DNA of 64,000 bases, taken from NCBI GenBank assembly GCA_035221665.1, contig CM069140.1, positions 74,090,001 to 74,154,000 of the forward strand. Direction: 5' to 3'. Below the pieces are notes generated by a model that was not told the DNA's origin, did not search any database, and was given only the letters and a program-made list of their open reading frames with translations. Made by a program: the position numbers and the translations under genes. This document shows, in pieces, positions 1,261 to 55,279 of the stretch; positions within the stretch are counted from its first letter, which is position 1; every line of letters starts with the position of its first letter. The DNA comes from Okamejei kenojei. Taxonomy: Eukaryota.

Positions 1261-2956
1261 AGCAAGTGGTTGACACAAGGAACTGCAGATGCTGGTTTGC
1301 AGAAAAAGACAAAGTGCTGGAGTAACTCAGAGGGTCAGGCGACATGTGTGGGGAGCATGTTTAAGAAGGAACGGCAGATGCTGGAAAAAAATCGAAGGTA
1401 GACAAAAATGCTGGAGAAACTCAGCGGGTGAGGCAGCTTCTATGGCGCGAAGGAATAGGTGACGTTTCGGGTCGAGACCCTTCTTTAGGCTTTGTGTAGA
1501 GAGCAGGCGTGGAAGTACAGCTGGTGTCCAAGATGGCAAACGGTGTGTTGGTCCTTCACATGGAGAGGAACTGTGCACAAGAACAGGGACAGTATCACTG
1601 CAATCGTCCAGGGCTCAGGCGAGGCCACAGCCCCAGTACAGTATGCAGTCCTGGTCCCACTATCAGGGGAAGAATGTTCTTACTATGCATGGACTGCACT
1701 GAAGGTTCACCAGACCGATCGCAGGACTGATTGAAAAGGGTCTGGACACGAAACAGATGCTGGTTTAAACCGAAGACAGACACAAATTGCTGGAGCAACT
1801 CAGCGGGGCAGGCAGCATCTCTAGAGAAAAGGAATGGGTGATGCTTCGAATCGAGACCTGATGTTTTGGGTCAGGTCGGATCTGAAGAAGGGTCTCGGCC
1901 CAAAATGTCATCTTTCCAGAGGATGCTGCCTGACCCGCTGAGTTGCTCCATTTCTGATTTTAGTTTAGTTTAGAGGTTCATCGTGGAAACAGGCCCTTCG
2001 CCCATTAAGTCGGCACCGGCAAGCAATCCCCGTACATTTACACCACCCGACACACACTGGAGACAATTTACTAATTTTACCAAAACCAACTAGCCTACAA
2101 ATCTGTCCGTCTTTGGAGTGTGTGATGAGGCCGGAGCACCCGGAGTAAACCCACGCGGGTCACGGGGAGAACGTACAGACTCCGTACAGACGGCACCAGT
2201 AGATATATATCAGATATATTTGTGAGACTCATGGGGTAATTGTGCTAAAACACACATTTGATATACTGCAAATGATGGATTAGGGAGCACATTTATATTA
2301 CGCAGGATGAAAAGCCTCTCATGCAATTTTTAAATCGGGTACGAGGAAAAAATAGTTACTTTGGACACTGGCAAACAGAAAAAAGCTGTAACTGTGTTGG
2401 GGAAATAATTACCTCCATGCATTAACCAGACACCAGTGAACACAATTTGTTTTGTCAGTTTCACTATGGGTGGTTATTGAAATTGATAAGCAATTGCTTC
2501 TATTTAAAATTGTGCAATGATGCTCCATTAAACTATGTAACATCCAGCATTTAGAATTTAACCCCGGCAGCAATAAAAATAAATGTACTGGTACGATAAA
2601 GGCCTTCATTTTATGAAAATCGTCCTCAAGTCTGAAACTTTCTAGCCTCTAAGAACCTTTCCGATTGACATAATTGATTTCATGATACGATTTTCTATAA
2701 CACAATGTTTCTTAGAAACGTAACTGTAGGCACCTTGCGTTTTACGAGCGTTTGATTTAGACTTTAGAGGTACGGAGCAGAAACAGGCCCTTTGGCCCAT
2801 CGAGTCCACATCGACCAGCCATCCCACGTCGACCAGCGATCCCCCATACACTGACACTATCCTACACTCCAGGGGCAATTTACAAGTTTACAATTTAAAA
2901 TTACAATTGTAAAGAATTACAATTAAAATGTTTCTGAGGTCAATCATCCTCCAAAC

Positions 2957-5545: not shown

Positions 5546-8399
5546 AAGAAATTCCTCCTCATCTTCTGTAAAAGATAGCAAATTGGCTGCAATTGGCTTC
5601 GGTAAAAAGATTGTAAATTGTCCCTAGGATAGAGCTGGGGTACGGGGATCGCTGGTCGGCGCGGACTCGGTGGGCCGAAGGGCCTGTTTCCGTGCTGCAT
5701 CTCTAAACCCCATCTTCCAGCATTGCCTCGTAGCCTTCACTGCCAAGTTAATTCAAGTGTTCACCCAGATACATCTTCAATGCTGTCAGCAACTCTACCT
5801 CCACCACCATGCCCAGCAGTGCGTTCCAGGTACAATTAGTGAAATAGACTCCCTTCAAACCCCCCTAGATTTCTTACCCCTTATCTTAAATGTACGTTGT
5901 TCACTTTTATTCAACTTTGACAAGGAGAGAGGATTTGTGCTGTCTTTGACTTTGGCCTTTAGAGAGACAGTGTAGAAACAGGCCCTTTGCCATAGATGCA
6001 GAGAAAACGCACATCTGCTGTGCATGCTGTTCTCGGTGTGTGGAGTGGCCCCCACTCCCCAGCCCCCCACCCCAAGTTTGTTCCGGCCAGTGATCACCCC
6101 TTAGACTAGCACGATCCTACACACTAGGGACAATTTACAATCTTTACCGAAGCCAATTCACCTACAAACATGTACGTCTTTTGGAGTGTGGAAGGAAACC
6201 GGAATACTCGGAGAAAACCCACGCAGTCACGGGGAGAACGTACAAACTCCGTACAGACGGCACCCGTGGTCAGGATCGGACCCAGGTCTCTGGCGCTGTG
6301 AGGCACCAACTCTACTGCTGCGTCACCGCTGCCAGATATGGTCCTATATAAGCAGTACAATGGAGGTATACTAGACAGAATAAATGGTAGATACACACAA
6401 AATGCTGGAGTAACAGCGGGACATGCAGCATCTCTGTAGAGAAGGAATGGGTGATGTTTTGGGTCGAGACCCTTCTTCAGACTCAGAGTCACCCATTCCT
6501 TCCCTCCAGAGATGCTGCCCGTCTCGCTGAGCTACTCCAGCGTTTTGCGTCTACCTTCGATTTAAACCAGCATCTGCAGTTCTTTCCCACACGCCTAGTG
6601 GCTCCACAGTTGCACGAGCTACAGATGTGCTGAGCGTGTTAGGGTGCTGAGGAAATGGGCGCGAGGTGCCATGACCTAACGCAGCTAGGAAATTGGGTTC
6701 TATTTAAACTGAATCTTCAAAGCCTCAGTGAATCCGGCAAGTCGCTTCATGGCACCATAGAAATGGTCACTTTGAAACAGCCAGCCACTTCAAACCAAGC
6801 ATGTATTCTTTCTCCTGCGAGTTTTGTGATTGCTGCCTCCTTGGCTCTCGTCTGAGCTCTGTTACGAGTGAATTTGCTTCTGCCGTCCTTGCAGGCACGG
6901 CGTCCCGGATTGTAAAACTCGCCATGTCAAACAAAAGACTCTCACCCCCCTCGCCTTGCTCTGCCACAGACTGCACAACAGCCGCTCGCGATGGAGAGCT
7001 CGCTGGCATCTTTAACAATGGCGCCGAGAGGCTTGCAAAACCAATTTAACCCAAGCAGCGCATTAATGTGCTTAATCTGCAAGAAGTTTCTCATTTCATT
7101 TTTTTTTTTTTTTTTTAACAAATCCCAAATCTTGCTGGCAGAGCTGCAAACAAAACAATGTGATTGCACTCTGCATGAGCACTTTCATTAAGTACTCATT
7201 TCTTTTAATTCCCCCTTTGCGGAGGCAACCCTTTTTGAGTTCTCAAATTACACCATATATCCAGATTCCCGCAACCCTTCTGTTACCACACACCTCACGT
7301 TATTCCCTGCTTATTTTTGACCCACTGTAAATGTCTGGAGAGGCTTTGAACAATTGGTCTAAATGTAAGATTACCCAGAGACGATTTGATTTGAAAGATT
7401 AGTCTGGGTTTGTGCGCTTTCTATATACAGCTTGGCTGGGATTTCCACTGTGCTCTTAGTAGGCTTGCTCTTCATAGCGTTACTTATAAACTAAAGAGAG
7501 AACAAAGTCAACCCTTATTTTGTGCAATTCTCAATTAGAGTTGGCACCAGTAATCGTGCTAACCAGTAGTAATTTGTCCATTTTATATAGTTCAAACGCA
7601 CACGATTCATGCCAAATCTGTAGACGTTTGAGTTTAGAGATACAGCGTGGAAAAAGGCCCTTTCGGCCCCCCAAGTCACTAGGGACAATTTACTATTTTA
7701 CCAAAGCCAGTGAACCTACATGCGTGCATGTCTTTGGAGAGTGGGAGGAAACCGGAGCACCCGGAGAAAACCCACATGGTCACAGAGAGAACGTGCAAAC
7801 TCCGTACAGGCAGCACCCTGTGGTCAGGATCGAACCCTGGCGCCATAAGGCAGCAACTCTACCGCTGGTAGACAAAAATGCTGGAGAAACTCAGCAGGTG
7901 AGGCAGCATCTATGGAGCGAAGGAATGGGTGACGTTTCGGGTCGAGACCCTTCCCGTGATAAGGGGCAACTCGATAAGCGTTAGATTGATAACCACATTT
8001 CTGTGGAGTCTATTAACATTTCACACTTCTGACATAATGTTGGCCACAAAGTTACATTGGAAACAATCAAGGAACGGCACCAATTGAAGCCGATTCTCAC
8101 GAGCTTCTAACACTTGAGGCCCATTCTCATGAGAGTGGCATTAGTTGTGGCAATGTTTGCAGCAAACTGTCACGAGTGTGCCAATGTTTAAGGCTAAATT
8201 TTGGACACGTCCCAGAATTGGTGCTCGATATTTGTGGGTCACCACCGTTGGAACAACAGTCAACAACCAGAGAGGGGTCCTGAGCTGCTTTCTACCCCAT
8301 TGGAGGCCCCTTGGACTCCCTTTAATCGGACTTCACCTTGCACTAAACATTATTCAGGTTATTCCCTTTATCATGTACCTGTACACCGCGAGCGGATCG

Positions 8400-16260: not shown

Positions 16261-18564
16261 AATGTATAAAGAGCTGCCAAGGGAGGTAGTTGAGGCAGGT
16301 ACTATAATAACATTTATATGACATTCAGATAGGTACATGGATAGGAAAGCTTTAGATGGATATAGGCCAAACACGGGCAGGTTGGGCTTGCAGAGGTGGT
16401 CCCAAGGCATAACAAACCACACTGGCCGCCCAGCAACACAGAGAGGGGAGGTCAACGATCACACAACATTAACTTAGCTTCCTTCCCCTCAAATACTACC
16501 TAAAAGGTACAGGGTCTCCTGCATTTTCTATTGTTAGTGCTATCAAAGAGAATATTATCAAAGGAGTCCTGGGGCTTGGTCAGATAAACGGTGTACGAAG
16601 GAACTGCAGAACTGAAGATAGACACAAAAAACTGGAGTAACACAGCGGGTCAGACAGCATCTCTAGAGAAAAGGAATAGGTGAATTCTGAAGAAGGGTCT
16701 CGACATGAAACGTCACCGATTCCTTTTCTCCAGAGACGCTGTCCGACCCGCTGAGTTCCTCCAGTTTTTGAGTGTCCATCTCCGGCTTGGTTAGGTAGCT
16801 AGGCTCTGAGGAAAGTGGAATTAGGAGAACGAGAGGCAGGAAGCACAACTCATGGCTGCAGATAGTTTAGTTCAGGAATCTGCAGTTGGGGAACGGAATT
16901 TGTTCAAGGTTCCATGGAAAAAGGTTTATCCCGTGCCAGGAGAATTCTTCTTATCCAAAGGAGTGGACAAAAATGTAGCAGTTCCGGATTTACAAGCCAG
17001 AAGATAACACCACGCCACGAGAGAGATGGTAAAAATTAATGACAGTATTTGTTGTCAGGCGCTGACAGCAATGGAAGTTGTTGAACAATTCTGAACACGT
17101 AGCTGATTCAGTGATGTGCTGTCGGGAGGAAATTAGGAACTTAGGAAGGAAGTTTCCCAGAGTCTAGGGCCAGTTCAGTTCAGTTTGTCACGTGTACCGA
17201 AGTTATGTCAAAAGCTTATGTTGCGTGCTATCCAGTCAGCAGACAGACTATACATGATTACAAACAAGCTATTTACATGATAAGGGAATAACGTTTAGTG
17301 CAAGATAGAGCCAGCAAAGTCCGATCAAGGACAGATAGTCCGAGGGTCACCAATGAGGTAGACAGTAGTTCAGCACTGCTCTCCAGTTGTGGTAGGATGA
17401 TTCAGTTGCCTGACCAGAGGGCACAGCCTCAGAATAATAGGGCATACCTTCAGAAAGGAGACGAGGAGGAATTTCTTCAGTCAGAGGGTGGTGAATTTGT
17501 GGAATTCATTGCCACAGCTGGCGGTGGAGGTTGAGTCATTTGATATTTTTAAAGCAGGGATTGTGGGATAATGTAGAACTTTAGGTTCTTGATTAGTAAG
17601 GGCGTCAAAGGTCATGGGGAGAAGGTAGGAGAATGGGGTGGAGAAGGAAAAGTAGATCAGCCATGATTGATTGGCGGGGTAGGCTTGATGGGCCGAATGG
17701 CCTTATTCTGCTCCTGTGTCTTATGATTTCATGCGAACGGGGCAATGGAAGGAATAGAGAATTGCAAAAATAAAAAAAACTATCTGAAGCCAAAAGAAAG
17801 GAAAGATACTACCTTCATGTATCCAGTCTCCTTAGTTTAGTTTAAAGATACAGCGTGCAAACAGGCCCTTCGGCCCATCAACTTCACGTCACGATCAATC
17901 ACCAGCTCACACTAGTTCTACATTATCCCACTTTCTCATCCACTCCCTGCACATTAGAGGCGATCTACAGAGGATAATTAACCTATGATTCTACACGTCT
18001 TTGGGATGGGAGGAAACCTACAAAACTGTGGTTTAGTTCATTTTAGTTTAGTTTAGTTTAGAGATGCAGCATGGAAACAGGCCCTTCGGCCTGAGTCCGC
18101 GCCGACCAGCGATCCCCGCACGCTAACACTATCCTACACACACTAGGGACAATTTACATTTATACCAAGCCAATTAACCCACAAACCTGTACGTCATTGG
18201 TGTGTGGGAATAAAGCTAAGATCTGGGAGAAATCCCACGCAGGTCACAGGGAGAACGTACAAACTCCGTACAGACAGCGCCCACAGTCAGGGTCTCTGGC
18301 GCTGGAAGGCAGTAGCTCTACTGCCGCGATACCGAGCCGCCCACTTTGGTATAAACCAGCATCTGCAGTTCTTTGTTTCTACATGGGGAAAAGCTAGTTA
18401 TACGCCACAAAGTCACTGATTAGCCAAGTGGGGGGAAACAAAGCTGCCTGCTAACTTAAAAAGAGAAGCAGAAGAGTTTAGTTAGCAGTAGGCTATATTT
18501 TCCCCCTCATCTTGGCTAATTCGTGACTTAACAGTGCATGACTATAATAGCTTTAATTATCTAT

Positions 18565-19800: not shown

Positions 19801-20334
19801 TTCAACGATTTAATAATAATAATAAATAATAATAATAATTCTGATGGAGTACAATGAACGCTCCTCATTTGTCACACTCCCACCTGCATGAAGAGTAATA
19901 GGCTCACGTCATTCTAGAGTACGAGTGCATAACGTTGCTGACACTTCAATGCTGATACGTGCAAGTGCATCACTATCATGGGTGCCTTCTTCACATCAGA
20001 AGAGCCACAGAGGTTGCGACTGCATTCTCAGATGGATAATAAGAGACGTCACAAAAATCTTTGAAACAAAAAGCAAAGTATGCAGGAAGGAAGTGCAGAC
20101 GCTGGTTTACACCGAAGGTAGACACAAAAATGCTGGAGTAACTCAGCGGGACAGGCAGCGTCTCTGGAGAGAAAGAGTGGGTGACGTCTCGGGTCTGAAG
20201 AAGGGTCTCGACCCGAAACATCACCCATTCCTTCTCTCCAGAGATGTTGCCAGTCCCGCTGGGATACAAAAAACAAAGTCGTTCGTCCTGATATCGTGGC
20301 CAACATTTATCCTTCTATCAAAGTCAAAGAACTG

Positions 20335-23602: not shown

Positions 23603-25080
23603 TCTTTGTTGTGCTTCAGTGCCACATGGTCTGATTCAAAGTAGTACACATCGGGCTCCTCGTCCTCTTCCTCCTCTCTAGACAGCTGGCTGCCATTCTC
23701 CCTGCTCGCAGGCAAGAGCCCTCTGTGCAGCCCCCGCTGAGCCGGCGAGTCCGGCACGTCACCACCGCAGCAGCCGCCGCCGCCGCCCCCCGGCTCGTCT
23801 GGCTCCCTTCCGGCTCGAGAGTCGCCCTCCTCCACCGTCGCACAGCGTTCCCTGTCCGCGGCCACCGCCGCTCCGACGGGCGGTCCACAGTCGCCGCCGC
23901 CGGGGTTGGGGAGGTTATCCTCCGCCTGCCCGCAGTCCCGGGGGGACGAGCACGTCTTTTGAGGGCTGCCCTTGCCCGCGGCAGCCCTCCGGGGCGAAGT
24001 TCTCAGTGCGTACCTGTGCTCCTGCGAATCGAACGGGGAGTCGGGCGCGGCGGACTCCTCGGGCGCCCCCGCGAGGGGACCCACGTCCGGGGCCGCGTCC
24101 GCCCCGCAACACTGCTCCCGCGACAGGGACGAGCTGTACCCCACCACGTCCACCTCCTCCTCCGATTCCCTGATTTGCACCGGGTTCTCAGTGGCGGGAT
24201 GCGCGGCGGACCGCTGCGACTGGCAGTCACTGACTGTCTCGCAGTCTTCCCACTGCAAGTCTCTAGAAGGCACATCGGGCTCTGAAGTGGCGGCCATCTT
24301 GCTGCCGTTCAGCAGCAGGGAATGGCCGCCCGAGTTAACGCTGACAGTGTCTGTGGGTAAAATGGGTGCACGCGTATCCACACGTTTTGGTTTATGGTTC
24401 AAATGAAGAGGTTCACACTCACTACGCTCCGAAGAGGCAGCAGCAACAGCAGCAGCAGCAGCAATATCTTTCTCATTGATCCCATTGGCAGCTTTGTGTG
24501 AAGATGCCTCCCTCAGCAGCAACGGGTCCTCGCGCCCGCCATCCAAGTCCTTCATCTTTTTGATCTCCCTTTTGTCACAATCATCCAGTAGAAGAAAGCG
24601 CCGGGCGCGCTTGAGCTGCGAGGAGTCGCCATCGCTGTTGGGGGCCAGCCCCTTGCGCTCGAGAGGAGCCTTCTCGGTCCTAGCGGGGGGCGACGGGTCC
24701 TCCAGGCTGTCCGCGGGCTCCGAGCGCGAGCATCGCTTCACCCGCTTGAAGCCGGGCAACGCCGGCTGGCAAATGTCCAGCAGCTTCTTCTCGTGGTTGT
24801 CCTTGTCCGAGCACAGCAGCCCCCTCTTCCTCGGGCTGGCCCACGGCTCCCGGGCGCCGTGCTGCCTGCACTCGCCGACCTTGCCGCTGTTGGCGCTCCT
24901 CGGCTGCGGTGTGGCCTCCTGCTTCTTTTTCGGCGATCGCGACCTCAACTGGGGGAGGGGGGAGGAATCGTCGGGGTGGATTATGCTCCGGTTCCTCAGC
25001 GTTCGCCCGCAGAAGTTCTCGTCCAAACCGTTCGACCCAACTGACGACCTTGTGACGCGCTGGGATCTAAAAGCGGCCAT
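23603..25080 (-). CDS. ZZZ3: ZZ-type zinc finger-containing protein 3 (ATAC complex subunit), large first coding exon; later exons lie outside the window
   Basis: The 495-aa ORF matches the recalled vertebrate ZZZ3 N-terminus: MAAxRSxRVTRSxVGxNGLDExFCGRTLRNRSI, RSRSPKK, SPRKRGL, LLDDCDKREIKK, SEEEVDVVG, QEHRYxLRTSPRRAA, EPDVYYFESDHVALKHNK. It ends at a phase-2 donor AAAGA|GTATGT (23602-23597). An in-frame TGA lies upstream of the ATG. Confidence 0.95.
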
Positions 25081-25143
25081 GCTACGGGGAATTCCTAAAA
25101 GATCACCATCATGACTCTCTCATGAGCATCAAGTGAAGGAAAC
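25081..25143 (-). other. ZZZ3: 5'UTR part of the ZZZ3 first coding exon, with splice acceptor
   Basis: Minus-strand polypyrimidine tract and acceptor tttgctcttttcttttgtattctcaag|GTTTCC, 63 nt upstream of the ATG. Confidence 0.75.
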
Positions 25144-25663: not shown

Positions 25664-26582
25664 TAGTCGACCGTTTGGTTTTCAGCTATTCAGTACTTTG
25701 TCCTTCAAGTGAAGGACTCCTGTCACAAGAGCGTGCTTTACCACAATACGCATTTATCTCCTCGTACCTCAAGTACCATAGGAGAAGAGCAAAGCAGTGG
25801 AATTTTCAGGCAGACAATAGACAGCAACTTAAACAAGGAAGGCCAAAAGCTATGAGGAGCAGCTGACAACATGGTGCTGAGGCCAAAATTGGATCATCCA
25901 TGTTACTGAACTGCTGAGCTTGCATGCGGAGACGACTGGTTTACTAATGCTGTTTAAGAAGGAACTGCAGATGCCGGAAAATCGAAGGTAGACAAAAGTG
26001 CTGGAGAAACTCAGCGGGTGCAGCAGCATCTATGGAGCGAAGGAAATAGGCAACGTTTCGGGCCAAAACCCTTCTCCAGACTTTACTAATGCTCCCATTT
26101 CTTCTTTTCTTCAGGTATTCCTGCTAATTAAATCGGTGTTATTCACAATTTCTTACCTGATAATTCCAGCATTTCACTTTGGTAATAAGTAGCATGTTAT
26201 AGAGTCATACAAAGTGGAAACAAGCCCTTCGACCCAACTTGCCCACACCCGCCAACATGTCCCACCTACGGAAGTCCCACTTGCCTGCATTTGGCCCATA
26301 TCCCTCTAAACGTGTCCTACCCATGTACCTGTCCAACTGCTTCTTAAATGTTGCAACAGTCCCTGCCTCGACTACCTCCTCCGGCAGCTGGTTCCATGCG
26401 CCCACCACACTTAGCATGAAAAAGTTACCCCTCCAGATTCCTATAAAATCTCCGCCCCCCCCTCACCTTAAAGTTATGTCCTCTGGTTCTCGATTCTCCT
26501 ACTCTGGGCAGGAGACTGTGTGCGTCTTACCCCATCTATTCCAGTCGTGTCTGGAAAATCCCATAAACTACATACTGCTTAC

Positions 26583-28343: not shown

Positions 28344-29950
28344 TAAGGGATCTAGAGAGAGCATTGCCTAAAGAATGCAACTAAAATCAGACCCACACTA
28401 TCCTCTCATCTCACAGCTACCATCGGGAAGGTGACACAGGAGCTTAAGAACCTTTACAGGCAGGTTCAAGATCAACTTTATCCTCCTCCTCATCTCAGTC
28501 CTGAATGGCCTACCCCTTCTTAAACTGGCCCCTGGTTCTGGACACCCAAAATCAGGAAATGTTTACTGCACCCAGCCTGTCCAGTCTTATATGTTTCTGG
28601 TAAGATCCCCTCTTATCCTTCTAAATTCCACTGAATGCAAGCCCAGTCGATTCATTTTTTCCATCGTATGTCAGTCCCGCCATCCCGGGAATTAACCTTG
28701 TGAACCTACTCTGCACTCCCTCAATAGCAAGAATGCCCCTCCTCAAATTGGGAGACCAAAACTAAAACAATACTCCAGGTGCGGTCTCACCAGGGCCCTG
28801 TACAACTGCAGTAGGACCCCCTTGCTCCTAAACTCAAGTCCTCTTGCTATCATGTTCAACATGCCATTTGCTTTCTTCACTGCCTGCTGTATCTGCATGC
28901 TTACGTTCAGACACCACATGCAGCCACCACATACGGCGCTTGCAAAGTTACAAAGTGCCCCCCCCCCCCGCTGGCTCTTCCTTTGTTCTCCGCCACAGTG
29001 GTTCCCCCACACTGGGTTCTCCTTTGTTCTCTCCCCAACCCCCCCACCCCCCCACCGATGATCTCCCCCACGCCGGATCCTCCAAAGTTCATTGCTCCCC
29101 CTCTCTCCCATCCCTTATTAACCATCAGGTGCTTGAACCAGCCAGACAGAACCCTAACCACATTCCAATCTCAGCACCGCACTGCTGTGGACTTTGCACT
29201 GTGTACTTTAGCTTGCACTATCATGGAATAATTCTTGTATATTTATCTGTTGTACTGGTGTGTTTAATGTGCCTGTAAAACTGCTGCTAGAGTTCCATAG
29301 TTAATATCCACCAGGAACGGAACAATTGGGCACACGTGATCATTCCATCAGCTTTGCCAATCACTTGCTGTGCCTCGTGCTCACTTTTTGGTTTCATGCA
29401 CTGGGACTCATTCCTTCGTACTATATCATGTTGTCGTCACAGAGTGATACAGTGTGGAAACAGGTGCTTCGGCCCAACTTGCCCACACTGGCCAACGTGC
29501 CCCATCTACACTAGTACCACCCGCCTGCATTTGGCCCGTATCCCTCCAAACCTGTCCTGTACCTGTCTAAATGTCTCTTAAACGTTGTGCTAGTCCCTGC
29601 CTCAACTCCCTCCTCTTTGTACCCCTCAGGTTCCTATTAAATCCTTCCCCCCTCAGCTTAAACCAATGTCCTCTGGTTCTTGATTCCCCTACTCTGGGCA
29701 AGAGAATTGGGCGTTTACCCGATCTATTCCCTTCATGATTTTTCACATCTCATGAGAGTCTTTAGATAATTACTTGTATTTTCATTCTTTCTCCCAAAAT
29801 GGATAATCTCACATTTTCCCCACATTATATTCCATTTGCCTTCTTATAGCCCGACTCCATACCCTTCACAGACTTCCTCCTTGCTAATCCATCTACCTTT
29901 ATGTCATGGAGTAACTCAGCGGGCGAGGCAGCATCTCTGCAGAGAAGGAA

Positions 29951-29988
29951 TGGGCGACGTTTCGGGTCAAGACCCTTCTTCAGACCCA
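29951..29988 (-). ncRNA. Candidate minimal type I hammerhead ribozyme within a palindromic Penelope-tail element (29908-30092)
   Basis: Minus strand reads UGGGU-CUGAAGA-A-GGGUC-UU-GACCC-GAAA-CGUC-GCCCA. This gives the core CUGANGA/GAAA, a stem II, a palindromic ACGU in place of stem III, a GUC triplet and a 5-bp stem I. Confidence 0.55.
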
Positions 29989-30413
29989 AAACGTCGTCCA
30001 TTCCTTCTCTCCAGAGATGCTGCCTCACCCACTGAGTTACTCCAGCATTTTGCGTCTACCTTCGATATAAAACAGCATCTGCAGTTCTTTCTTATATACT
30101 TCTTATATCTTTATATCATCAATTCTGTCTGTCGGATACTTGGTCCCTTCATCCGAGTCATTAATGCAGCTTAAAAGCAATGGAGGTCCGAGAACTCAAC
30201 TACTTACTGAATGCTGATCCAAAAATATCCCATCTAGTTTCTGTTAATTAGCAGTGGCCCTATCCTTGCCAACAATATTATTCACTATCCTGTATGCGCA
30301 GTAACATCATATGTGGTAATTTATCCAATACCTTTTAGAAATTCAAATGCACAGCATCTAATGCTTCCCCTTTCTCCAGTCTATATGGTACATCCTCAGA
30401 GAACGTCAGAAAA

Positions 30414-33769: not shown

Positions 33770-33975
33770 TGGTCAGCTGACGATTGTCTAAGGAGCGGGG
33801 GGGTTTTCCTCGTAGCTTGTGATTTCTTGCAACCCCTTCCACACTGAAGAGTCATTTGCTGAGAACTTGCCTCTCAACTTCTCAGAGTACCTTTCCTTGG
33901 CAGCTCTGATTCCTCTTCTCAGCTTGTACTTGGCCTGCCTGTAGAGGTCTGCATGCCCGCTCCTGTAGGATCTAC
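33770..33975 (-). mobile_element. Rex/Babar-like LINE ORF fragment
   Basis: YRSGHADLYRQAKYKLRRGIRAAKERYSEKL...DSSVWKGLQEITSY is typical of the region upstream of the RT domain. Confidence 0.65.
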
Positions 33976-33990
33976 CCCCGCAAGACAAGT

Positions 33991-34680
33991 CAACGTCTTG
34001 TGAAAAACGAAACGGTTTGGTGAGAGTGTACGGGAGTGATATATTCTCTACAGACAACTGTGTGCTGTTTTGCAAAGCATGTGAGAAAGCAGTGAATCAC
34101 GAGAAGAAATACTTTATCTCCCAGCATGTACAGACAGCTAAACACAAGTCTGCGGCAGAGAAACTGAAGATAGGAAATACGCAAGCTTGTCTCCTCACTA
34201 CATTTACTGCTGGCTCCAGTCGCACATCTGAGTTTTCGAATGGTCTGTGCAAAGCATTCATTGATGCTGGAATTCCACTGTGGAAATTGGAAAACAAATC
34301 TCTCGAGTTTTTATTAAGGAAATACACAGAGGAACATATACCAAGCGAGTCATCATTACAGAAAAATGATGTTGACAGCAACTTAAACATTGTTGCGCAA
34401 TAAATTTGAGATGAAGTTGCATGCAACAAAATATGGACAACCATATATGTTGCCAATGTGGTCATCGGTAAACTGGAGGCAGGTCAACCATCAAAGGAGT
34501 ATTTCTTGACATTGGAAGTATTGGAGAAGTCAAAGAGCTCAACTATTGTTCAGTTGTTTGTTTACATCTTCACTTACTGTACTTTGTACTTAATGCTCAT
34601 GGCGATGTAGGTAAAGACATACAAGGAAAATCAGAGAGGGTGATTTTAGCTAACAAAGATCTTGAAGAAATACAGTCTCC
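33991..34680 (+). pseudogene. Decayed CGGBP1-like hAT transposase
   Basis: Zinc finger LFCKACEK...ISQHVQTAKH and DAGIPLWKLEN...YTEEHIPSESSLQK. After a stop and a deletion it continues YVANVVIGKLE...FLTLEVLEKSKSSTIVQLF. A putative element end TAGAGCCAGGATTT lies at 33274. Confidence 0.75.
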
Positions 34681-35979: not shown

Positions 35980-36726
35980 AACCATATAACAATTACAGCA
36001 CGGAAACAGGCCCTCTCGGCCCTTCCAGTCCGTGCCGACCATTTGTTTTCCCCTAGTCCCATCTAGCTGCACTCAGACCATACCCCTCCATTCCCTTCAC
36101 GTCCATATACCTATCCACTTTACTTTTAAATGTTAAAATCGATCCTGCCTCCACCACTTCTGCTGGAAGCTCATTCCACACAGCCACCACCCTCTGAGTA
36201 AAGAAGTTCCCCCTCACGTTACCCCTAAACTTCTGTCCCTTAATTCTCATGTCATGCCCTCTTGTTTGAATCTTCCCTACCCTCAATGGGAAAAACGTAT
36301 CCACGTCAACTCTGTATATCCCTTTCATCATTTTAAAGACCTCAATCAAGTCCCCCCTTAACCTTCTGCGCTCCAAAGAATAAAGACCTAACTTGTTCAA
36401 CCTTTCTCTGTAACATAGTTGCTGGAACCCTGGCAACATTCTAGTAAATCTCCTCTGTACTCTCTCTATTTTGTTGACATCCTTCCTATAACTAGGCGAC
36501 CAAAATTGTACACCATACTCCAGAATTGGTCTTACCAATGCCTTGTACAATTTTAACATTACTTCCCTACTCCTATATTCAATGCTCTGATTTATAAAGG
36601 CCAGCACACCAAAGGCTTTCTTTACCACCCTATCTACATGCGATTCCACCTTCAGGGAACTATGCACGGTTATTCCTAGATCCCTCTGTTCCACAGCATT
36701 CCTCAATTCCCTACTATTTACCATGT
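35980..36726 (-). mobile_element. Young 5'-truncated CR1 (HER1-like) LINE inserted into a SINE
   Basis: Open RT C-terminus EQRDLGITV...LYKALVRPILEYGVQFWSP...LERRRLRGDLIEVFK...FFTQRVVAVWNELP, with a (ggttatat)n tail. The SINE is split, with agat repeated at both junctions. Confidence 0.92.
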
Positions 36727-36870
36727 AGATCTCAGAGAAAACCCACGCGGTAACGGGGAGAACGTACAAACTCCGTACAGACAGCACTCGTAGTCGGGAT
36801 TGAACCCGGGTCTCCGGCGCTGCATTCGCTGTGTAGCCACTGTTGATCGAGTGGGTCCCTGCATATTGTA

Positions 36871-37534
36871 TATTATTACCCATATCACCCATCTGAGGTA
36901 TGCTTTTACGAAATTGTATTCCCTTCCTTTTTACTGCCAGCAGGGGTAACAGGGGAATATTTTCTTATATTCCCCTTTCTAGCGAACGCCTATGGACTTT
37001 ACCTGTTTAAACAGCGGGGAATATAGTCTTATATTCCCCTGGTCTCACATCCGGGAACTTGGCAACGTGACGCTGCGTGACGGCAACGTGACGCTGCGTG
37101 CGAAATTTAAAATTTATTCTCAAAACAAACAAAATGGCAGCCGGTTGCAAGAAGAGGTTCGCGATTTAAAAGTTCGACCTTCACATTGTCACATAAATGA
37201 ATTACATAAATTACATAAATGAAACATAAATGTTACATTGTTTTAGTACCCTTATTTACAATGTTGGAATGGTTTTAGTACCCTTATTTACAATGTTGCA
37301 ATGCATATTGCAAAATGTATAGATACATTCATATCATATGAGATGTTCAGATTTTCCTCTAGATGTCTGATAATGGGTAATAATAACAATATTGACTGTC
37401 CTCTTTCGGGAGATACAACATATATTGCCCTCACTAGATCCATATTGCCCTCGTCTTCGACTCGGGCAATATGAATCTACTTCAGGCAATATATGTCGTA
37501 TCCCCCTCAAGGCCAGTCAATATTCTATTATTAT
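36871..37534. mobile_element. Crypton-like non-autonomous hairpin element, copy 2
   Basis: Same architecture as 20852-21260 plus an apical stem CATATTGCCC-TCGTCTTCGA-CTC-GGGCAATATG (37441-37473). Confidence 0.55.
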
Positions 37535-39480: not shown

Positions 39481-41171
39481 TATGTCCCCTTATTCACCCT
39501 CCCTCATTTTAAACTTTAAAAAAAATACCAGAAAAAAAGAATTGGATTTCACTTGCTGCCAGGACTCAGTGTCCTGTGATTGCAACACTATTGCAGACAG
39601 GGCCTGCAAGGATGTGTTTTTTGACACTGAGAAGTTAAGTGAAAAGTAAATTTTTTGACGTTTTAAATGTGAATAACTTGTAAAATTTGGTGCGGCTGAA
39701 AATAAGAAGCCAAAGAAAATCATGCATGGGAAACCGAAAATAGGCAAGCTCAGAGATATGGAGGCCTCCAGGCTTGAATGGAGGTTGCAGAGATTGGGGG
39801 ATCTCAATCTCAGAGGTTGGGGGATCTCTTTAAAGGTGGTCTTTAAAAAAGTGTGAGTGTGCATGCGTGCGCAAGCGTGATCACATATTCGCGAAAAAAA
39901 CGACACGCTTACGGTAACATTTTAACATATTCCAGTAGAGATTTTTCCCCTGGACTCCAAAATTGCCTTACTTCCATGATTTTATTTTAGTGCACAAATT
40001 GACGATTTTCAAGCAGTCAAGTTAAAATTGATACCAATGCATTAACAATTTGGCGTTCCAGATAGTTGTCTAGGTTTATAGCAGCACACCCCTGTATCCC
40101 ACTGTATAATAGCATTTGCAAAGGATCTTTGACCGAAAATGTAAACTCTTTTCACAGTTGTTGCCCGTTCTGTGAAATCCAACATTTACTATCTCTGAAG
40201 GATACAAAGTGCTGAAGTAACTCAGCGGGATCGGCAGCAATTCTGGAGAAAAGGATGGGTGACATTTCAGGCTGGGACCCTTCTTCAGACTCTGAAGTCG
40301 GAAGGGTCACGACCCAAGACGTGATCCACCCTTTTTCTCCAGAGGCGTTGCCTAACCCGCTGCGTTACTCCAGCAATTTTGTGTTCAGCTTTGGTATAAA
40401 CAAGCATCTGCAGTTCTTTGTTTCTACATTTACTATCTCTGGTCTGTTAACGGTTCCTAAATTATCTGAAAATATCAGTGTTGCTTTAAGAAGCACGTGT
40501 CAAAAAGTAAGGGTGGTACCCAAATTCCCCAACATACTCCTTCAACAATGTGCCTTTTACATCATGCGTGGATTGGTAAAATACCTCTTTCCACCTCATT
40601 TTAGCATGATTTGGTACAACAGTTTACACCTTCCTGTGCTATAAACAGACTTGAAAGCAGTAATAAAAATCAATAAGACATGGTTGGAGAAACTATAAAA
40701 TGAGTGCAATTGAACAAGACAGGACTTGTGTGCATTGAATGAAATCATCTGTTGCTTATACTGCTCAAACGAGAATCCCAAGTGCCACACTCATCTACCT
40801 GCAAAGAGGTGTATTAAGGAGTTTAAGAAGGAACTGCAGATGCTGGAAAATCGAAGGTAGACGAAAGTGCTGGAGAAACTCAGCGGGTGCAGCAGCATCT
40901 ACGGAGCGAAGGAAATAGGCAACGTTTCAGGCCGAAACCCTTCTTCAGACATATATTAAGGAAACCTTTATAGGCTAGATTAGAATATGTCTGCACAATC
41001 ATCCAGCAAGACTCTAAGTGCAAGCAGGGTCTTCCAGGGAAAGTATGGAGCAACATTGGGAGTATTTAGGGAGTCTACAATACATCAGCATTTGTATTCA
41101 TTTGTTCATTCAGGCAATGCAACATGAGAGGTATTATCCAGGAATAAAGAGCAGTTTACAACACAGCGGTA

Positions 41172-41602
41172 TGTTTCGCTGAACACCTCCGTTCAGTCCG
41201 TCTGAACCCATCTGATCTCCCGGTGGCCCAGCACTTCAACCCCCCCTCCCATTCCCACACTGACCTTTCTGTCCTGGGCCTCTTCCACTATCAGAGTGAG
41301 GCCCAGTGCAAACTGGAGGAACAGCACCTCATATTTCGCTTGGGTAGTTTACACTCAATGGGTATGAACATTGACCTCTCTAACTTCAGATAGCCCTTGC
41401 TTTCTCTCTCCTTCCCTTTCCCAGTTCTCCCGCTAGTCTTACTGTCTCCGACTGCATTCTATCTTTGTCCCGCCTGAAGAAGGGTCTCGACCCGAAACGT
41501 CGCCCATTCCTTCTCTCCATAGATGCTGCCTCACCCGCTGAGTTACACCAGCATTTTGAGCCTACCTTTGATTTTACCAGCATCTGCAGTTCTTTCTTAC
41601 AC
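41172..41602 (+). mobile_element. Penelope-like element 3' end with hammerhead core in its tail
   Basis: GIY-YIG C-terminus FAEHLRSV...PVAQHFN..SHSHTDLSVLGL...KLEEQHLIFRLG, followed by CTGAAGAAGGGTCTCGACCCGAAACGTC at 41474-41501. Confidence 0.85.
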
Positions 41603-43124
41603 CAGTGGTATGAATGTTGATTTCTCCAATTTCCAGCAGCTCCTGCATTCCTTCCTTCCCGCCCCTACCCCACCCTAGTTATTCTACGAGTTCCACTGCT
41701 GGCATCCTTGTATCCCTGTCATTGGTACATCTTCCCCAGCCAACAAAGGGCCATTGTGGACTGCACTGTTCCAGAGGTCATCTGTTGCCGGCCCTCACCT
41801 CCAGTTTTCTCACCTTCAGTTCCCAACACTCTCTCCCCCCTCCCCCCCCCCCCCCCCCCCCCCCCACCTTTCAGTCTGAGGGAGGGTTCTGACCCGAAAC
41901 ATCACCCAAAACAGCACTCGCAATTCCTTCCCACACACCCACGGAAGCACATTGGATTGTCTTCGTTAGGCAATTCAGCTTCAAGCTCAAATTGAGATAG
42001 AGAAACTAATACTAGCTGGGATAATGAGGAGGAAAAGTATACTTTCAGAACAAGGTTGAAAGGATATAGAGCAAAGACAAGTGGGGGCAAGGTACTGATC
42101 AGGTACTGTAATCTAACGGGATGGTTGTAAAGACTCGAGGGGTAGTGTGGGCCAACTCCAATTGAGTTCTCTACCTCTCAATTGCAGAGGAGAAAATGCG
42201 GACAAATTAATATTATTGCCTATCAATTTACAAAGATGCCAAGTTCGTAAGGGTTTTAACTGAAAGAACATGTCAGAAATGGTCTCTACACTACTGCCTG
42301 GTACAGCGAGTTAAACGAGGCTCTCAGGTTGTGACCTGGTCGCTCTGTGGCCACTGGACCTCCAACATTCTGGATTTACTCAAGACCTTGGGCATGCATG
42401 TTTGGGTCCCGAGGGCAGTTACTTGCCCCATCAGGTGGGATGCTCTTCCTCAAGGTTACACTGGAGTTTGTAAGACCGTCAAAAAGGTCCAAATGGAATT
42501 AAAGAAACGCATAGCTGAAGCTAATGATGTGACAGCCCAGACCATCACCTCCCTTCCATTGACACCTCACGCTGCCTCGGCAAGTCCAGCAGCACAACCA
42601 AGGACCAGTCTAACCCCGGTCATTCCCTCTTTTCCCACCTCCCATCAGGCAAAAGGTACAGAGGTGTGGACATGCACACCTCCAGATTCAGGGACAGTTT
42701 CTTCCCAGATGTTATCAGGCAACGGAACCATCCTACCAACACCTAGAGTGGTCATCTCCCCCCCTCTCCTAGAGAACGGTCCTGAACTACAATCCACCTC
42801 ATTGCAGACCCTCGGACTATCTCTCATCAGACACTACTGGACTTTATCTTGCACTAAACGTTATTCCCTTCATCTTGTATCTGTACGCTGTGGACGGCTC
42901 GATTATAATCGTGTAAAGTCTTTCCGCTGATTAGTTAGCGTGCAACAAAAGCTTTTCACTGGACCTTGGTGTACGTGACAATAAACTACACACATTTACA
43001 TGCCACGATGTTGTTTTGTTCAGAACTGGATGCTGCTGCAGGTTAATGTGGAATATTTGGAAAGATGTTAAAAAGTGGGTGATGTGGTGTGTGCCTGAGC
43101 TCAGCTTGATTGCATTTATGTATA

Positions 43125-46300: not shown

Positions 46301-46544
46301 ACTTGATGCCTGATCAAGTACCTGACACTTGTACTGAACTATTTGCAAAAATGAATTTCACTGTACCTCAGTACATGTGATATATAAAGTACCATTGAAA
46401 AAGTACCATTGAGAATTTCTGATATCCAGTTTTAGCAGCACTGGCCAATTCCAATGAAAGGACATTAGCCCGAAATGTTAACTCTGCCTTCCTCTATCCT
46501 GAGATGCTGCCTGAACTATTGCATATTTAAATGATCCTGGAAAC

Positions 46545-47056
46545 ATGATCCCAATGTTGGGGGAGTCCAGAACCAGGGGCCACAGTTTAAGAATTAGGGA
46601 TGGGCCATTTAGAACTGAGATGAGGAAAAACTTTTTCACCCAGAGAGTTGTGAATCTGTGGAATTCTCTGCCTCAGAAGGCAATGGAGGCCAATTCTCTG
46701 GATGCTTTCAAGAGAGACGCCGCGCGACGTCCACATTCAGTTGGCCTGCCTCCTGCCCAGCTGATTGGTGAGCATGATGTCAGGACCAGCTCCATACAAC
46801 TTCATACGCCTCCGCGGTTCAAATTGGGACCGGCCCCACGAGGCCGTACGCCACAAGCGACTACGTTTGGTCGCGCTAAACGCAAGCAATCGCATGCTGG
46901 TGGGACAGGCCCTTTAGATAGAGCTCTTAAAAGATAGCGGAGCCTGGGGATATGGCGAGAAGGCAAGGAACAGAGTACAGATTGTGGATGATCCGCCATA
47001 ATCATATTGAATGGCTCAAAGGGCCGAATGGCCTACTCCTGCACCTATTGTCTATT
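46545..47056 (+). mobile_element. CR1 3' end containing a one-ended type D Harbinger MITE (~46716-46913)
   Basis: ESRTRGHSLRI...FFTQRVVNLWNSLPQK. The right TIR GCATGCTGGTGGGACAGGCCCT+TTA is present and the left TIR is absent; CR1 resumes at gatagagctct. Confidence 0.8.
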
Positions 47057-50955: not shown

Positions 50956-53900
50956 ATAAACAGGGAGTGGCGAGTCTGTGGAATTCTCTGCCTCAGAGGG
51001 AGGTGGAGGCAGGTTCTCTGAATGTTTTCAAGAGAGAGCTAGATAGGGCTCTTAAAAATAGCGGAGTCAGGGGATATGGGGAGAAGGCAGGAACGGGGTA
51101 CAGATTGGGGATGATCAGCCATGATCACATTGAATGGCGGTGCTGGCACGAAGGGTCAAATGGCCTACTCCTGCACCTATTGTCTATTGTAATCGCTTCT
51201 GTCTGCGTGTGATCCAAGCTCCTCCGCTCCCTGTTTACCCATGTACCTACCTATTAAACTTTATCGCACCTGCTTCTACCCCCACTTCTGGCAATGCGTT
51301 CCAGACACCTACCTCCGTGCACAAAACCTGCCTCACACATCTCCTTTAAACGTTCCCCCACTTGCCTTAAAAGTATGTCCTCTAGTATTTGACATTTCCA
51401 CCCTGGGGGAAAAGATTCTATCCCATCCATGCCTCTCATAATGTCGTGAAGTTCCAGCGAGTCTCCCCTCAGCCTCCAATGTTGCAGATACTCCTTCAAT
51501 AGACTACAACGTTTGCTCCAAGTTCCACGCTGCTTCCACTCGACTCAACGACGGACAGGACAGGGAAACGGTGCACCAGGTAGAGACATAGAGTGATACA
51601 GCATGGAAACAGGCCCTTCGGCCCAACTAGCCCACACCAGCCAACAACCCCCATCTACACTAGTTACCAAGACCTCAACGGTGGAACAGGCTGAGGACGA
51701 TGGCTAACCTTATTGGATCGTCACAACGGCTGGGAAGGCGGATGGATGAAGGCTGCGGCAGAAAAGGGTCCCCGGTTGTCTTGGACTCCACGCCACTGGA
51801 TCCTGACCCAGATCTGTCAAGGACCGTGTGGTGGCTGTCTGTGCGCCAGTCTCCCCACGTTAAACAAAGTCACGCACAGGCGTCCTCCATGAGAGGACAG
51901 TCGTACTCGTTTCGAATGACCGCCGATGATACCAGTCCCACCAGCCTGCGTTTGGCCCTGGTACACATTACAATAAACTAAACCTCTCCCTATAGCTTAT
52001 ATTCTCAAAACTGTGCCACATTTTAGAGAGTCTCTACTGCACCCTCTCCAAAGCCTCCCCAACCTTCCTGTAATGCAGCAATCAGAACTACACACCAGAC
52101 TTGGCCTGTTAACATTTTATACAGCTGCAACGTATCTGAAGAAGGGTGCCGACCCGAAACGTCACCCGTCCATGTTCTCCAGGGATCTTGCCTGCCCCAC
52201 TAAGTTACACCAGCACTTTGAGTCTTTTTATTGTGTAAACCAGCATCTGCAGCTCCTTATTTCCTAACCTTTATACTCACTGCGCTGACCATTAAAGGCA
52301 AGTATGCTACATGTCTTCTTTGCCAGCCTATCAAGATCCCTTTGTACATCAATGCTCCAAAAGATCACGGGGGAGCACGGCAGCGCAGCGGGTCGTGCTG
52401 CTGCCTCACAGCGCCAGAGGCCCGGGTTCAATCCTCACCACGGGTGCTGTCTGTACGGAGCTTGTACGCTCCCCCCGTGACCCGCCTGGGTTTTCTGCGG
52501 GCGCTCAGGTTTCCTCCCACACTCCAAAGACATGCAGGTTTGCAGGCTAATTGCCTTTGGTAAAAGACTGTCCATTTGTCCCCTGGTGTTTCAAGGTTTC
52601 AAGGTCAGTTTGTTGTCATGTGCCCCAATTAAGGTACAGTGAAATTCGAATTACCATACCGTCATACTAAAAAAAGGTTTTTAATTAAAAAAGCAACAGG
52701 ACACACAACCCCATAAAAATTAACATAAACATCCACCACAGTGGAATCCCCGCATTCCTCACTGTGATGGAAGTCAGTAAAGTCCAGTAGGATGTGCTAG
52801 AGTACGGGGATCGCTGCTCGGAGCAGACTCGGTGGGCTTGTTTCCGCAGTGTATTTCTAAACTGAATTCAACTAAATTTACCTGATATTGTCCTCTGACA
52901 GCCAAAATGCAATCCCTCACACGTGCCCGAATTAAAACTCCATCTGCACTTCAATGAGCCAAAGGGCTTGTTTTTGTGCTGCAGGATTCTGTAACTCATG
53001 AGAGGATTAGAAACTAACTAAACGCAGGGAGGCAGTGGATGAAAATTACAAGGCTCTGGTAAATGAAAGGGCAGAAGCAAGACTGGAGAGAGAGGCATTA
53101 AAATGCAAAACGATAAACAAACTGTGACAAGGAGGAATACACGGTACAAATCCAAGAATAAATCAGTAAAAATGGCTGGAGGTTATAAAAATAATTTTAA
53201 AAAGAAGACGTGAAAGGCTCTGTACCTGGATGCAAGCAGTGTTTGAAATCAAGCAGATCAACTGGGAGTGTAAAAAGTAAGAAAGAATGTTGTGGCAACT
53301 ATTAAATATGGTGACAAAACAAAGATGACTGGGACCCGAATTACCGACATAAAAGGCATTTATGTACCATTCCGTACATTTGCATTTATATTTATTGGCA
53401 AACCATTTAAAAGGAGTGGTTAAGAATTACCGAACAGTGAAAGGCTTGGATAGAGTGGATGTGGAGAGGACGTTTCCACTAGTGGGAGAGTCTAGAACCA
53501 GAGGCCACAGCCTCAGAATAAAAGGGCGTACCTTTAGGAAGGAGATGAGGAGGAATTTCTTCAGGCAGAGGGTGGTGAATCTGTGGAATTCTTTGCCACA
53601 GAAGGCTGTGGAGGCCAAGTCATTGGCGGCTCTTGATTAGTACGGGTGTCAGGAGTTATACAATACTGTTTATTGTCATTTGAACCTCATTGAGGTTCAA
53701 AGGAAATTTAGTTTCTGCAGTCATACAGACAAGAAAAGAAGCAAGACACAACACAATTGACACAAACATCCATCACAGTGAATCTCCTCCTCACTGTGAT
53801 GGAAGGCAAAGTCTTATCTCTCCCCTGCACTCCCCATTCTCCTCCCGATGTCAGAGTCAAAGCCCCAGGAGGGCGATGGTAAATAAGTCCCGCGGCCATT

Positions 53901-55279
53901 CAGGCCGCGCCGGGCGAAGCAAGGCCGCGCTCCGGGTCTTGATGTTAGAGCCCCCGGCAGACGCTAGCAAGTCCCGCGGCCATTAAAGCCGGTCGATGTA
54001 AGGCCCCGCTCCAGGTCATTTTCAACCCCGCAACTCGGGCGGGAGAAGTTGCCGCCGCGGGAGCTCGGAAAAGCGGTCTCCCACCAGGGGTCCGCAAGCT
54101 CCCGGTGTTACCGTCCACCGGCCTGCAGCTGGAGCCTCCGAAGCTCTGGGGTCGGGCAGCAGCAGCAGCAGCGGGTCAGGTCCTCCGTACAGGGAAAAGA
54201 TTTTAACCGTTTCCCCCACCCCGCCCCCCCACACATATCCAGCTAAAAAAAACCCACTACACTAAAACGAGACAAAAAATAAAAAAAGACAGACGTACTG
54301 CAGAGGCCGCTGCGACGAGAGTCGCACCAACCACCGGAACATGAGAGAAAAGGCAGGAGAATGGAGTGGAGAGGGGAAAGATGGATCAGCCATGATTCAA
54401 TGGCGGAGCGGACTTGATGGGCCAAATGGCCTATTCTGCTCCTATAACTTATGAACTTAGTGTATATTGGTATGTTTGCCTTCATTAGTCAGGCATTGAG
54501 GATAAGAATCAGGAAGTCATGATGCATGCAGCTTTATAGGTGTTTAAGAAGGAACTGCAGATGCCGGAAAATCAAAGGTAGTGGAGAAATCAAAAAGTGC
54601 TGGAGAAACTCAGCGGGTGCAGCAGCATCTATGGAGCGAAGGAAATAGGCAACGTAGTTTTAATACATAGTTGGTGCCTGGAACATGCTGCTCGGGGCGG
54701 TGGTGGAGATAGATACAATAGTGGCATTAAAGAGACTTTTGGATCGGCACATTCAGGGAGTTGTGGGGATATAGATCACGTGCAGGCAGAGGAAATGTGT
54801 AGGAAGGAACTGCAGATGTTGGTTTACACTGAAGATAGACACAAAATCCCAGAGTAACTCAGCGGGACCAGCAGCATTTCCGGATAGAAGGAATAGGTGA
54901 CTTTTCGGGCCGTTTTCGGGTTCGAAGGGTCTTGACCCGAAACGTCGCCCATTCCTTCTCTCTAGAGATGCTGCCAGTCCTGCTGAGTTACTCTGGCATT
55001 TTGTGTCTATTGCAGGGAGAGGAGATAGATTTAACCTGACATCATTTTGGGCGCAGGCATTGTGGGCCAAAGAGCTTGTTCCTGTGCTGTGGTGTTCTAT
55101 GTTCTAGGCGAGGAGGACATGAGGCTAAGAAAGGTTGGTGGGGCAACTGTTCAATAATGAAGTGAAGGAAGGAACTGCAGATGCTGGTGTATACCGAAGA
55201 TAGACACAAAGTGCTGGAGTAACTCAGCGGGTCAGGCAGCATCTCAGGAGAAAAAGGATGGGAGACGTTTCAAATCGAA

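Follow-up and report, generated by a model that had tools for sequence, protein, structure and literature searches.

Hammerhead-bearing repeats of the skate Okamejei kenojei are probably end stubs of a Penelope-like element, with a fixed 5' stop and paired long and short arms

What is a minimal hammerhead core doing just downstream of an endonuclease reading frame, and what is it that recurs with this core, mostly without the frame, across a vertebrate genome? The question arises from a 64,000-nucleotide stretch of the Okamejei kenojei genome (GCA_035221665.1, contig CM069140.1, positions 74,090,001 to 74,154,000 of the forward strand; hereafter the window), in which a first-pass annotation had placed a 28-nt core at 41474-41501 on the + strand, just 3' of the end of a GIY-YIG ORF, and had proposed that an ORF-less, ribozyme-bearing unit has amplified as a retrozyme-type family. 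The core is present as described, and all nine further positions named in the window bear the motif, either intact or with 1-4 changes. We found 23 cores within 6 substitutions in the 64 kb and 0 in each of 20 shuffled versions, which bears out the claim of more than 15 recurrences; a looser core pattern gave 14 matches in the window compared with 3.99 expected, a figure that 0 of 100 shuffles reached. Rfam returned no match at gathering scores in the window and no hammerhead family among 5 weak matches.

A profile of the last 800 bases of the element, built from 43 genomic copies, recovered 51 pieces from the window, 44 of them tail arms, and covers 8.7% of its bases. It covers 5.7% of the bases in a blind sample of 0.96 Mb, for which 96 stretches, each 10 kb long, were drawn from contigs 1-38 at fixed positions. 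That sample contains 361 arms, or 3.76 per 10 kb (bootstrap 3.2-4.3; 13 of the 96 stretches were empty), and scaling to the genome of 2.76 Gb gives an estimated 1.0 million arms (0.9-1.2 million). A Penelope-type minimal type I hammerhead core does occur at SINE-like density, as had been proposed, and the copies are indeed mostly without an ORF (38 ORF-end pieces and 341 tail arms by a stricter count of the blind sample). The unit, previously put at ~150 bp, measures ~100 or ~130 bp, and the head-to-head arrangement of many copies is a feature that the first-pass annotation did not contain.

At ~430 bp and with a long tail, the focal copy is a 5'-truncated insertion of the ordinary sort (Table 1). 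Element positions count from the first core base, which is +1 and lies at window 41474, with -1 immediately upstream; cleavage is predicted after +28 (window position 41501), and the core begins 80 nt after the ORF stop. The ORF end matches the endonuclease C-terminus of a longer copy (locus L031) at 82% identity and shark and ray relatives at 54-67%, and a Pfam search with its 81 amino acids returned nothing. The flanks on either side look like the ORF end of an older copy, which makes a nested insertion probable. Younger copies sitting with short duplications inside the ORF ends of older copies of the same element, here (window 41164-41173 and 41603-41908) and at ~1512 in locus L288, may reflect a preference of the element for its own sequence.

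Table 1. Parts of the focal copy, and other copies of the element, in the window
Feature	Position	Strand	Remarks
Left copy of probable 10-bp target-site duplication	41164..41173	+	Read from sequence; 9/10 bases match 41603-41612
5'-truncated C-terminal end of PLE ORF (GIY-YIG endonuclease C-terminus)	41174..41393	+	Stop at 41391-41393
Pyrimidine-rich 3' UTR	41394..41473	+	Without the short YCAGT-motif stretch that normally precedes the core
Minimal hammerhead core	41474..41501	+	CUGAAGA, bulged A, 4-bp stem II with tetraloop, GAAA, palindromic ACGU; stem I 2 bp only
End-repeat body to short 3' end (~+93 to +97 from first core base)	41502..41570	+	Bimodal 3' ends
Optional PLE tail, ~32 bp, long 3' end	41571..41602	+	In long copies runs into ORF N-terminus
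Right duplication copy and rest of older decayed copy (ORF end, long UTR, degenerate core at 41876)	41603..41908	+	
Head-to-head pair, short arm -, long arm +	40198..40421		Inside 16-bp target-site duplication
Head-to-head pair, long and short arm	54800..55010		13-bp duplication
Head-to-head pair	29907..30094		Includes first-pass copy at 29956
Head-to-head pair	20085..20267		Includes first-pass copy at 20195
Head-to-head pair	16594..16788		Includes first-pass copy at 16687
Head-to-head pair	6378..6587		Includes first-pass copy at 6453
Head-to-head pair	1753..1950		Includes first-pass copy at 1882
Solo long stub, start 3 nt before core	25955..26082	-	12-bp duplication
Solo long stub	40824..40961	-	First-pass copy at 40921; GUU at cleavage site
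Solo long stub of older subfamily	52135..52259	+	First-pass copy at 52136

Copies elsewhere in the genome extend upstream to variable lengths and reveal the parent: a GIY-YIG endonuclease, reverse transcriptase (RT) motifs, a DKG motif and an N-terminal region. Pfam searches with decayed long copies gave RVT_1 at E=0.003-0.018 and GIY-YIG at E=0.017, both under the curated cut-off, but there were clear homologues in sharks, rays, corals and urchins (23 matches), several of them with RT and GIY-YIG domains. A CX2-5CxxC linker precedes the endonuclease in 24 of 30 distinct copies (38 rows less 3 unrelated matches and 5 duplicates). This linker is described as a mark of Neptune and Nematis and as absent from Penelope and Poseidon (PMC8557442). 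The parent is an endonuclease-bearing Penelope-like element (PLE), assigned to the Neptune/Nematis type by its linker motif rather than by a tree, with the two clades taken together; a Poseidon label was considered and is ruled out by the presence of the linker zinc finger. With the published EN+ PLEs of those clades the element shares an RT with DKG, the linker, the C-terminal GIY-YIG domain and strong 5' truncation, as well as partial tandems, adjacent inverted truncated copies, a 30-40-bp tail often at one end and a hammerhead in the end repeat (PMC8557442). It differs from them, as they are described there, in having about one million arms, roughly nine in ten of them ORF-less, and a sharp stop 2-6 nt before the core.

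Partial tandems give the element a pseudo-LTR, and the end repeat is continuous with the start of the ORF: among copies found by their N-terminal region, the tail passes directly into the ORF start, with the ATG at ~+165. All of the long copies examined were broken, at 77-88% alike, and genome searches in which the best 40 candidates were scored found no intact master copy. One young subfamily with a long UTR (L231-L259) is 97-98% alike, which suggests activity later than that of the bulk of copies, which are 7-20% diverged. At L175, L176 and L182 (oriented 1220-1560) a frame beginning at the first core base shares its register with the ORF ATG. The variable sites of this open frame across core and tail fall without codon periodicity (12/9/9), hence it carries no signal of coding constraint. 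A splice-donor-like site overlaps the ORF ATG and is exact in 6 of 16 copies.

The 3' ends of the copies are bimodal, near +96 and near +126, and these two ends give the two arm lengths. Adjacent arms in the blind sample stood head to head in 62 of 80 cases; across all loci, and with 3 of 80 ambiguous pairs excluded, 60 of 77 classifiable pairs joined a long arm to a short one (p=4e-7), so that one arm has the known 30-40-bp tail and the other lacks it. Many of the pairs lie inside a single target-site duplication. Both arms belonged to the same subfamily in 51 of 61 pairs, compared with 19% expected. Duplications, mostly of 9-17 bp, surrounded 24 of 65 pairs (0% when the flanks were shuffled) and 20 of 106 solos (1% when shuffled). 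Junctions within pairs vary, and the few that recur do so at microhomologies. Because the arms obey the long-and-short rule, come from one subfamily, share a duplication and meet at varied junctions, each pair is a single insertion event made afresh. An 8-bp helix between +48..+55 and +105..+112 (window 41521-41528 and 41578-41585) is present in all seven subfamily consensuses, with no covariation; it forms only in RNA that bears the tail, and it encloses the short 3' end.

The head-to-head layout as such is already in print (PMC3846280, PMC8557442). The Pen2a_Av insertions of Adineta also have an inverted repeat arranged head to head, a tail on one arm and a single duplication around the insert (PMC3846280), whereas the pairs described here are often only ~200 bp long; the authors of that study propose self-priming on an antisense template, while the long-and-short rule suggests priming on both strands. 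Poseidon_Ac of the green anole (PMC11167929) likewise has two 3' ends ~30 nt apart, a hammerhead and tail that overlap the start region of the ORF, and a cleavage site that is not a copy end. It belongs to another clade, given the linker zinc finger of the skate element, whose first in-frame ATG lies ~165 nt after the core start, and the fixed 5' stop of the skate stubs does not feature in the sections of PMC11167929 cited here.

That stop is a further regularity of the family. Using a library of 13 UTR variants and setting 47 paired copies aside, we found that, of 112 unpaired copies with a core, 72 stop 2-6 nt ahead of it and 40 continue. Stops occur at a rate of 0.094 per nt at -7..+1, compared with 0.004-0.022 inside the unit (0.0065 around the cleavage site, +26..+30) and 0.003-0.04 upstream; they fall mainly after -5, -3 and -2, in long and short arms alike. 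The upstream flanks of stopped copies are unique, with no common head, and in individual copies the target-site duplications abut the -2..-6 boundary. The share of stopped copies differs by subfamily, from 7/23 to 8/8, and in the youngest, whose copies are 97-98% alike, 24 of the 30 best matches extend beyond it. Among 20 distinct copies that carry both the core and the ORF start (drawn from 60 loci after duplicates and core-less copies were dropped), 6 stop at the fixed point (p=0.006 versus 72/112), and on inspection 3 of these 6 extend by at least 15 nt. Unrelated UTR variants have in common a YAG at -4..-2 (40 of 48), which fits an initiator consensus. The idea that the UTR is an intron ending at this YAG, as in D. 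virilis, was rejected: a genome pattern search listed 40 matches (control, 0), and 19 of 20 examined proved to carry another UTR variant and 1 of 20 a nested insertion. We met no description of a fixed stop in the literature covered, which lay outside subscription papers, Repbase and Dfam. The possibility against which the first-pass proposal had been set, that all copies are simple 5'-truncated Penelope insertions, thus comes close to the truth but leaves out 5' ends that are non-random and piled up just before the core.

The hammerhead itself has all of its parts: the CUGANGA and GAAA boxes, an NUH site, stem II and a palindromic stem III. Stem II had been drawn as 5 bp with a 2-nt loop, a form that the folding program rejected; 4 bp with a 4-nt loop can fold. 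Metazoan PLE minimal hammerheads share the type I core, the bulged base before stem II, the G-C at the stem base and the palindromic ACGU in place of stem III, and they too are mostly single motifs of truncated copies with some opposite-strand pairs (PMC4209133; dimers are reviewed in PMC6765202). Schistosome motifs have a stem II of 7-8 bp and a stem I of 4-5 bp, compared with 4 and 2 bp in the skate, while helix I of D. virilis is likewise 2 bp (PMC4209133). Stem I has 2 bp in 48 of 72 intact cores and at least 4 bp in 6 of 72, and a search of the seven consensuses for a pseudoknot or a longer stem I gave no conserved helix from the stem II loop. Construction of consensuses, one of the checks suggested by the first-pass annotation, succeeded for seven subfamilies and copy number was estimated, while its covariation half drew a blank, stem II being invariant: a few copies have a U-A to U-G change, none has a two-sided change, and no such change occurs in any helix of at least 5 bp that all seven consensuses share.

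Across the consensuses the boxes and stem II do not vary, while 29 positions from +29 on do, so the master copies were under some constraint. The copies themselves do not keep the core better than its flanks: it decays like other invariant sites (93.9% versus 92.9%, p=0.13, with the flank sites picked post hoc); 69 of 186 copies retain the core and 38 of 186 retain core, stem II and ACGU. When two monomers were folded the hammerhead was predicted to be disfavoured, with a stem II pair probability of at most 0.003. Copy ends do not gather at the cleavage site, and this, together with the 2-bp stem I, the flank-like decay of the core and the lack of regular core-bearing arrays in the blind sample, makes the hammerhead of the stubs look like a probably idle passenger. 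The disfavoured monomer fold and short stem I fit the low or protein-dependent activity reported for such motifs (PMC4209133, PMC11167929). One subfamily combines U-G in stem II with GUU for GUC at the cleavage site (window 40921-40948 and 25955-26082, both on the - strand; loci L075, L116 and L148).

How might such stubs be made? The tail coincides with the beginning of the ORF region, and a transcript from the 5' end repeat would carry the core, the tail and the ORF start. By analogy with Poseidon_Ac in vitro, where reverse transcription begins at two internal sites that define the tail, the element's protein would nick both target strands and prime at two internal RNA sites ~30 nt apart, giving the two 3' ends (PMC11167929). 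Where both strands are primed, one per site, the two cDNAs would join head to head within one duplication, which is the pattern that the pairs display. Most cDNAs would be 100-130 nt long because their template goes no further, and the resulting stubs, without the downstream RNA that the protein needs, would be dead ends with an idle hammerhead as passenger. Our preferred explanation is that the repeats are PLE end stubs, inserted singly or as head-to-head pairs and likely copied from the RNA of the autonomous element, and that the fixed stop would be caused, with a probability of about one half, by run-off at an RNA 5' end that lies 2-6 bases before the core.

That the repeats are PLE stubs and not retrozymes is very probable, whatever the cause of the stop. 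An independent, non-autonomous SINE- or retrozyme-like family with a fixed 5' end, amplified from short masters of its own, would account for the very high copy number, the discrete ends and the duplications, and retrozymes have been proposed to derive from PLE end repeats (bioRxiv 10.64898/2026.07.22.740005). Non-LTR retrozymes resemble the stubs in being ORF-less, hammerhead-bearing, PLE-related and abundant, but they are described as tandem arrays with a hammerhead per unit, mostly canonical, that are expressed as circles, whereas the stubs lie scattered, singly or as inverted pairs, and their core is minimal (PMC7229834; bioRxiv 10.64898/2026.07.22.740005). The blind 0.96 Mb contained no regular core-bearing tandem arrays and only 10 same-strand neighbours within 400 bp, so the family falls outside the tandem definition of non-LTR retrozymes given in those two sources, although other parts of the genome may hold such arrays. 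Six of the seven tail subfamilies are linked directly to the ORF. The seventh, which is older, looked like an exception, with 0 of 81 arms ORF-linked at first pass and none by motif search, but its copies have a UTR in common, and a search with that UTR found an endonuclease upstream in 12 of 25 targeted loci; there is accordingly no stub-only subfamily among the seven, clusters coarse enough for small stub-only lineages to hide within them. One polyA RNA run from a presumed relative (6% sampled, reads mostly <95% alike) has 97-98% of its reads continuing into unrelated sequence, tail reads about equal on both strands and no starts or ends piled at the focal locus, a weak test given that polyA libraries miss circles. 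With the varied pair junctions, these data make an independent family improbable and do not support the first-pass proposal of one. It is very improbable that we are dealing with ordinary random 5' truncation, the pile-up being an alignment artefact of divergent UTRs: some apparent starts at -8..-47 did turn out to reflect UTR variants that the first profile had not captured, and the UTR library may be incomplete, but the stop persists in the count made with 13 variants and the duplications abutting the boundary largely refute the idea. Least likely of all, to the point of being hardly tenable, is that hammerhead self-cleavage makes the RNA ends from which copies derive. The invariance of the core among consensuses whose downstream positions vary would favour it, but the copies retain sequence upstream of the cut, with no pile of starts at +29 and, in the one polyA run, no pile of RNA ends at the cut; stem I is mostly 2 bp, and mutants of the Poseidon_Ac hammerhead insert unchanged in vitro (PMC11167929).

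The alternative that bears most closely on the run-off reading accepts the same stubs and the same autonomous RNA and would have reverse transcription abort at the 5' edge of the hammerhead domain, which, folded or bound by protein, would anchor the RNA to the protein. We regard such a stall as possible, if on the doubtful side. It agrees with a stop that is set by sequence and not by length, since long and short arms stop alike, and that is weaker on second passage, in the ORF-start copies; the Poseidon_Ac hammerhead, moreover, cleaves only with protein, and that protein requires the first 172 nt of the ORF region (PMC11167929). Yet the stop lies beyond the core, where the core pairings would already be unwound, and folding predictions for the RNA alone do not give a hammerhead. 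Run-off, for its part, is consistent with the fixed stop, the two arm lengths that share it, the unique flanks and the common YAG. A cap-derived G is the expected junction mark of run-off, and there was no significant excess of it at the junctions (6/16, p=0.22; 10/24, p=0.10). The end repeat of D. virilis Penelope contains an internal TATA-less promoter (PMC2377424), which speaks for run-off, and its start lies ~120 nt upstream of the ribozyme (a 46-nt exon and a 75-nt intron; PMC2377424, PMC4209133), which speaks against it. Run-off predicts that ORF-start copies should also begin at the RNA 5' end; that only 6 of 20 do so counts against it, and a second class of template, started further upstream, is needed to account for long copies. 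The differences between subfamilies, the youngest copies that run past the stop point, the spread of stops over -2, -3 and -5, the want of a pile of RNA starts (a weak test) and of an intact master tell against it too.

The family is ordinary in kind, for minimal hammerheads, tails and inverted repeats at PLE ends have all been published already, and the stubs are likely dead by-products. They nevertheless make up a large share of the genome's repeats (~5.7% of the sampled DNA), to be annotated as PLE-derived and not as a ribozyme gene family, and the fixed 5' stop, the long-and-short pairing and the common subfamily of paired arms constrain the mechanism of PLE insertion. Tentatively, and at somewhat less than even odds, the stubs might be read as a fossil record of Penelope insertion, in which a protein dimer would prime both strands at two internal RNA sites and most cDNAs would end at the 5' edge of the hammerhead. 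If that were true, a product resembling a strong stop would explain pseudo-LTRs, one-sided tails and inverted ends, and the question of how PLEs transpose would become directly testable in vitro.

Some further observations concern the stubs and their surroundings. Head-to-tail arrays of a 66-bp unit (+21..+87) without the first catalytic box occur at L222 (oriented 1650-1947) and L293 (oriented 1600-1745); these are a satellite-like stutter rather than a retrozyme. Over ORF parts (L176, 800-1820) polyA reads favour one strand by 2-3 to 1, probably the strand antisense to the element; over the tail the two strands are balanced. Chondrichthyan retrozyme families are listed in the supplements of bioRxiv 10.64898/2026.07.22.740005 and may bear on these stubs. 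The window has other contents besides. Its segments 36053-36964 (-), 58099-58895 (+) and 46515-46937 (+), the first without a Pfam match, are presumably fragments of another abundant repeat that resemble a LINE C-terminus, and short ORFs at 33969-34483, which have no Pfam match, are assumed to be like a zinc-finger fragment of a DNA transposon. Finally, ZZZ3 (ZZ-type zinc finger protein 3), whose best named relatives here come from rays and sharks, in keeping with a cartilaginous and probably batoid host, has a large coding exon at 23593-25119 on the - strand that is 71% identical to a Mobula protein.
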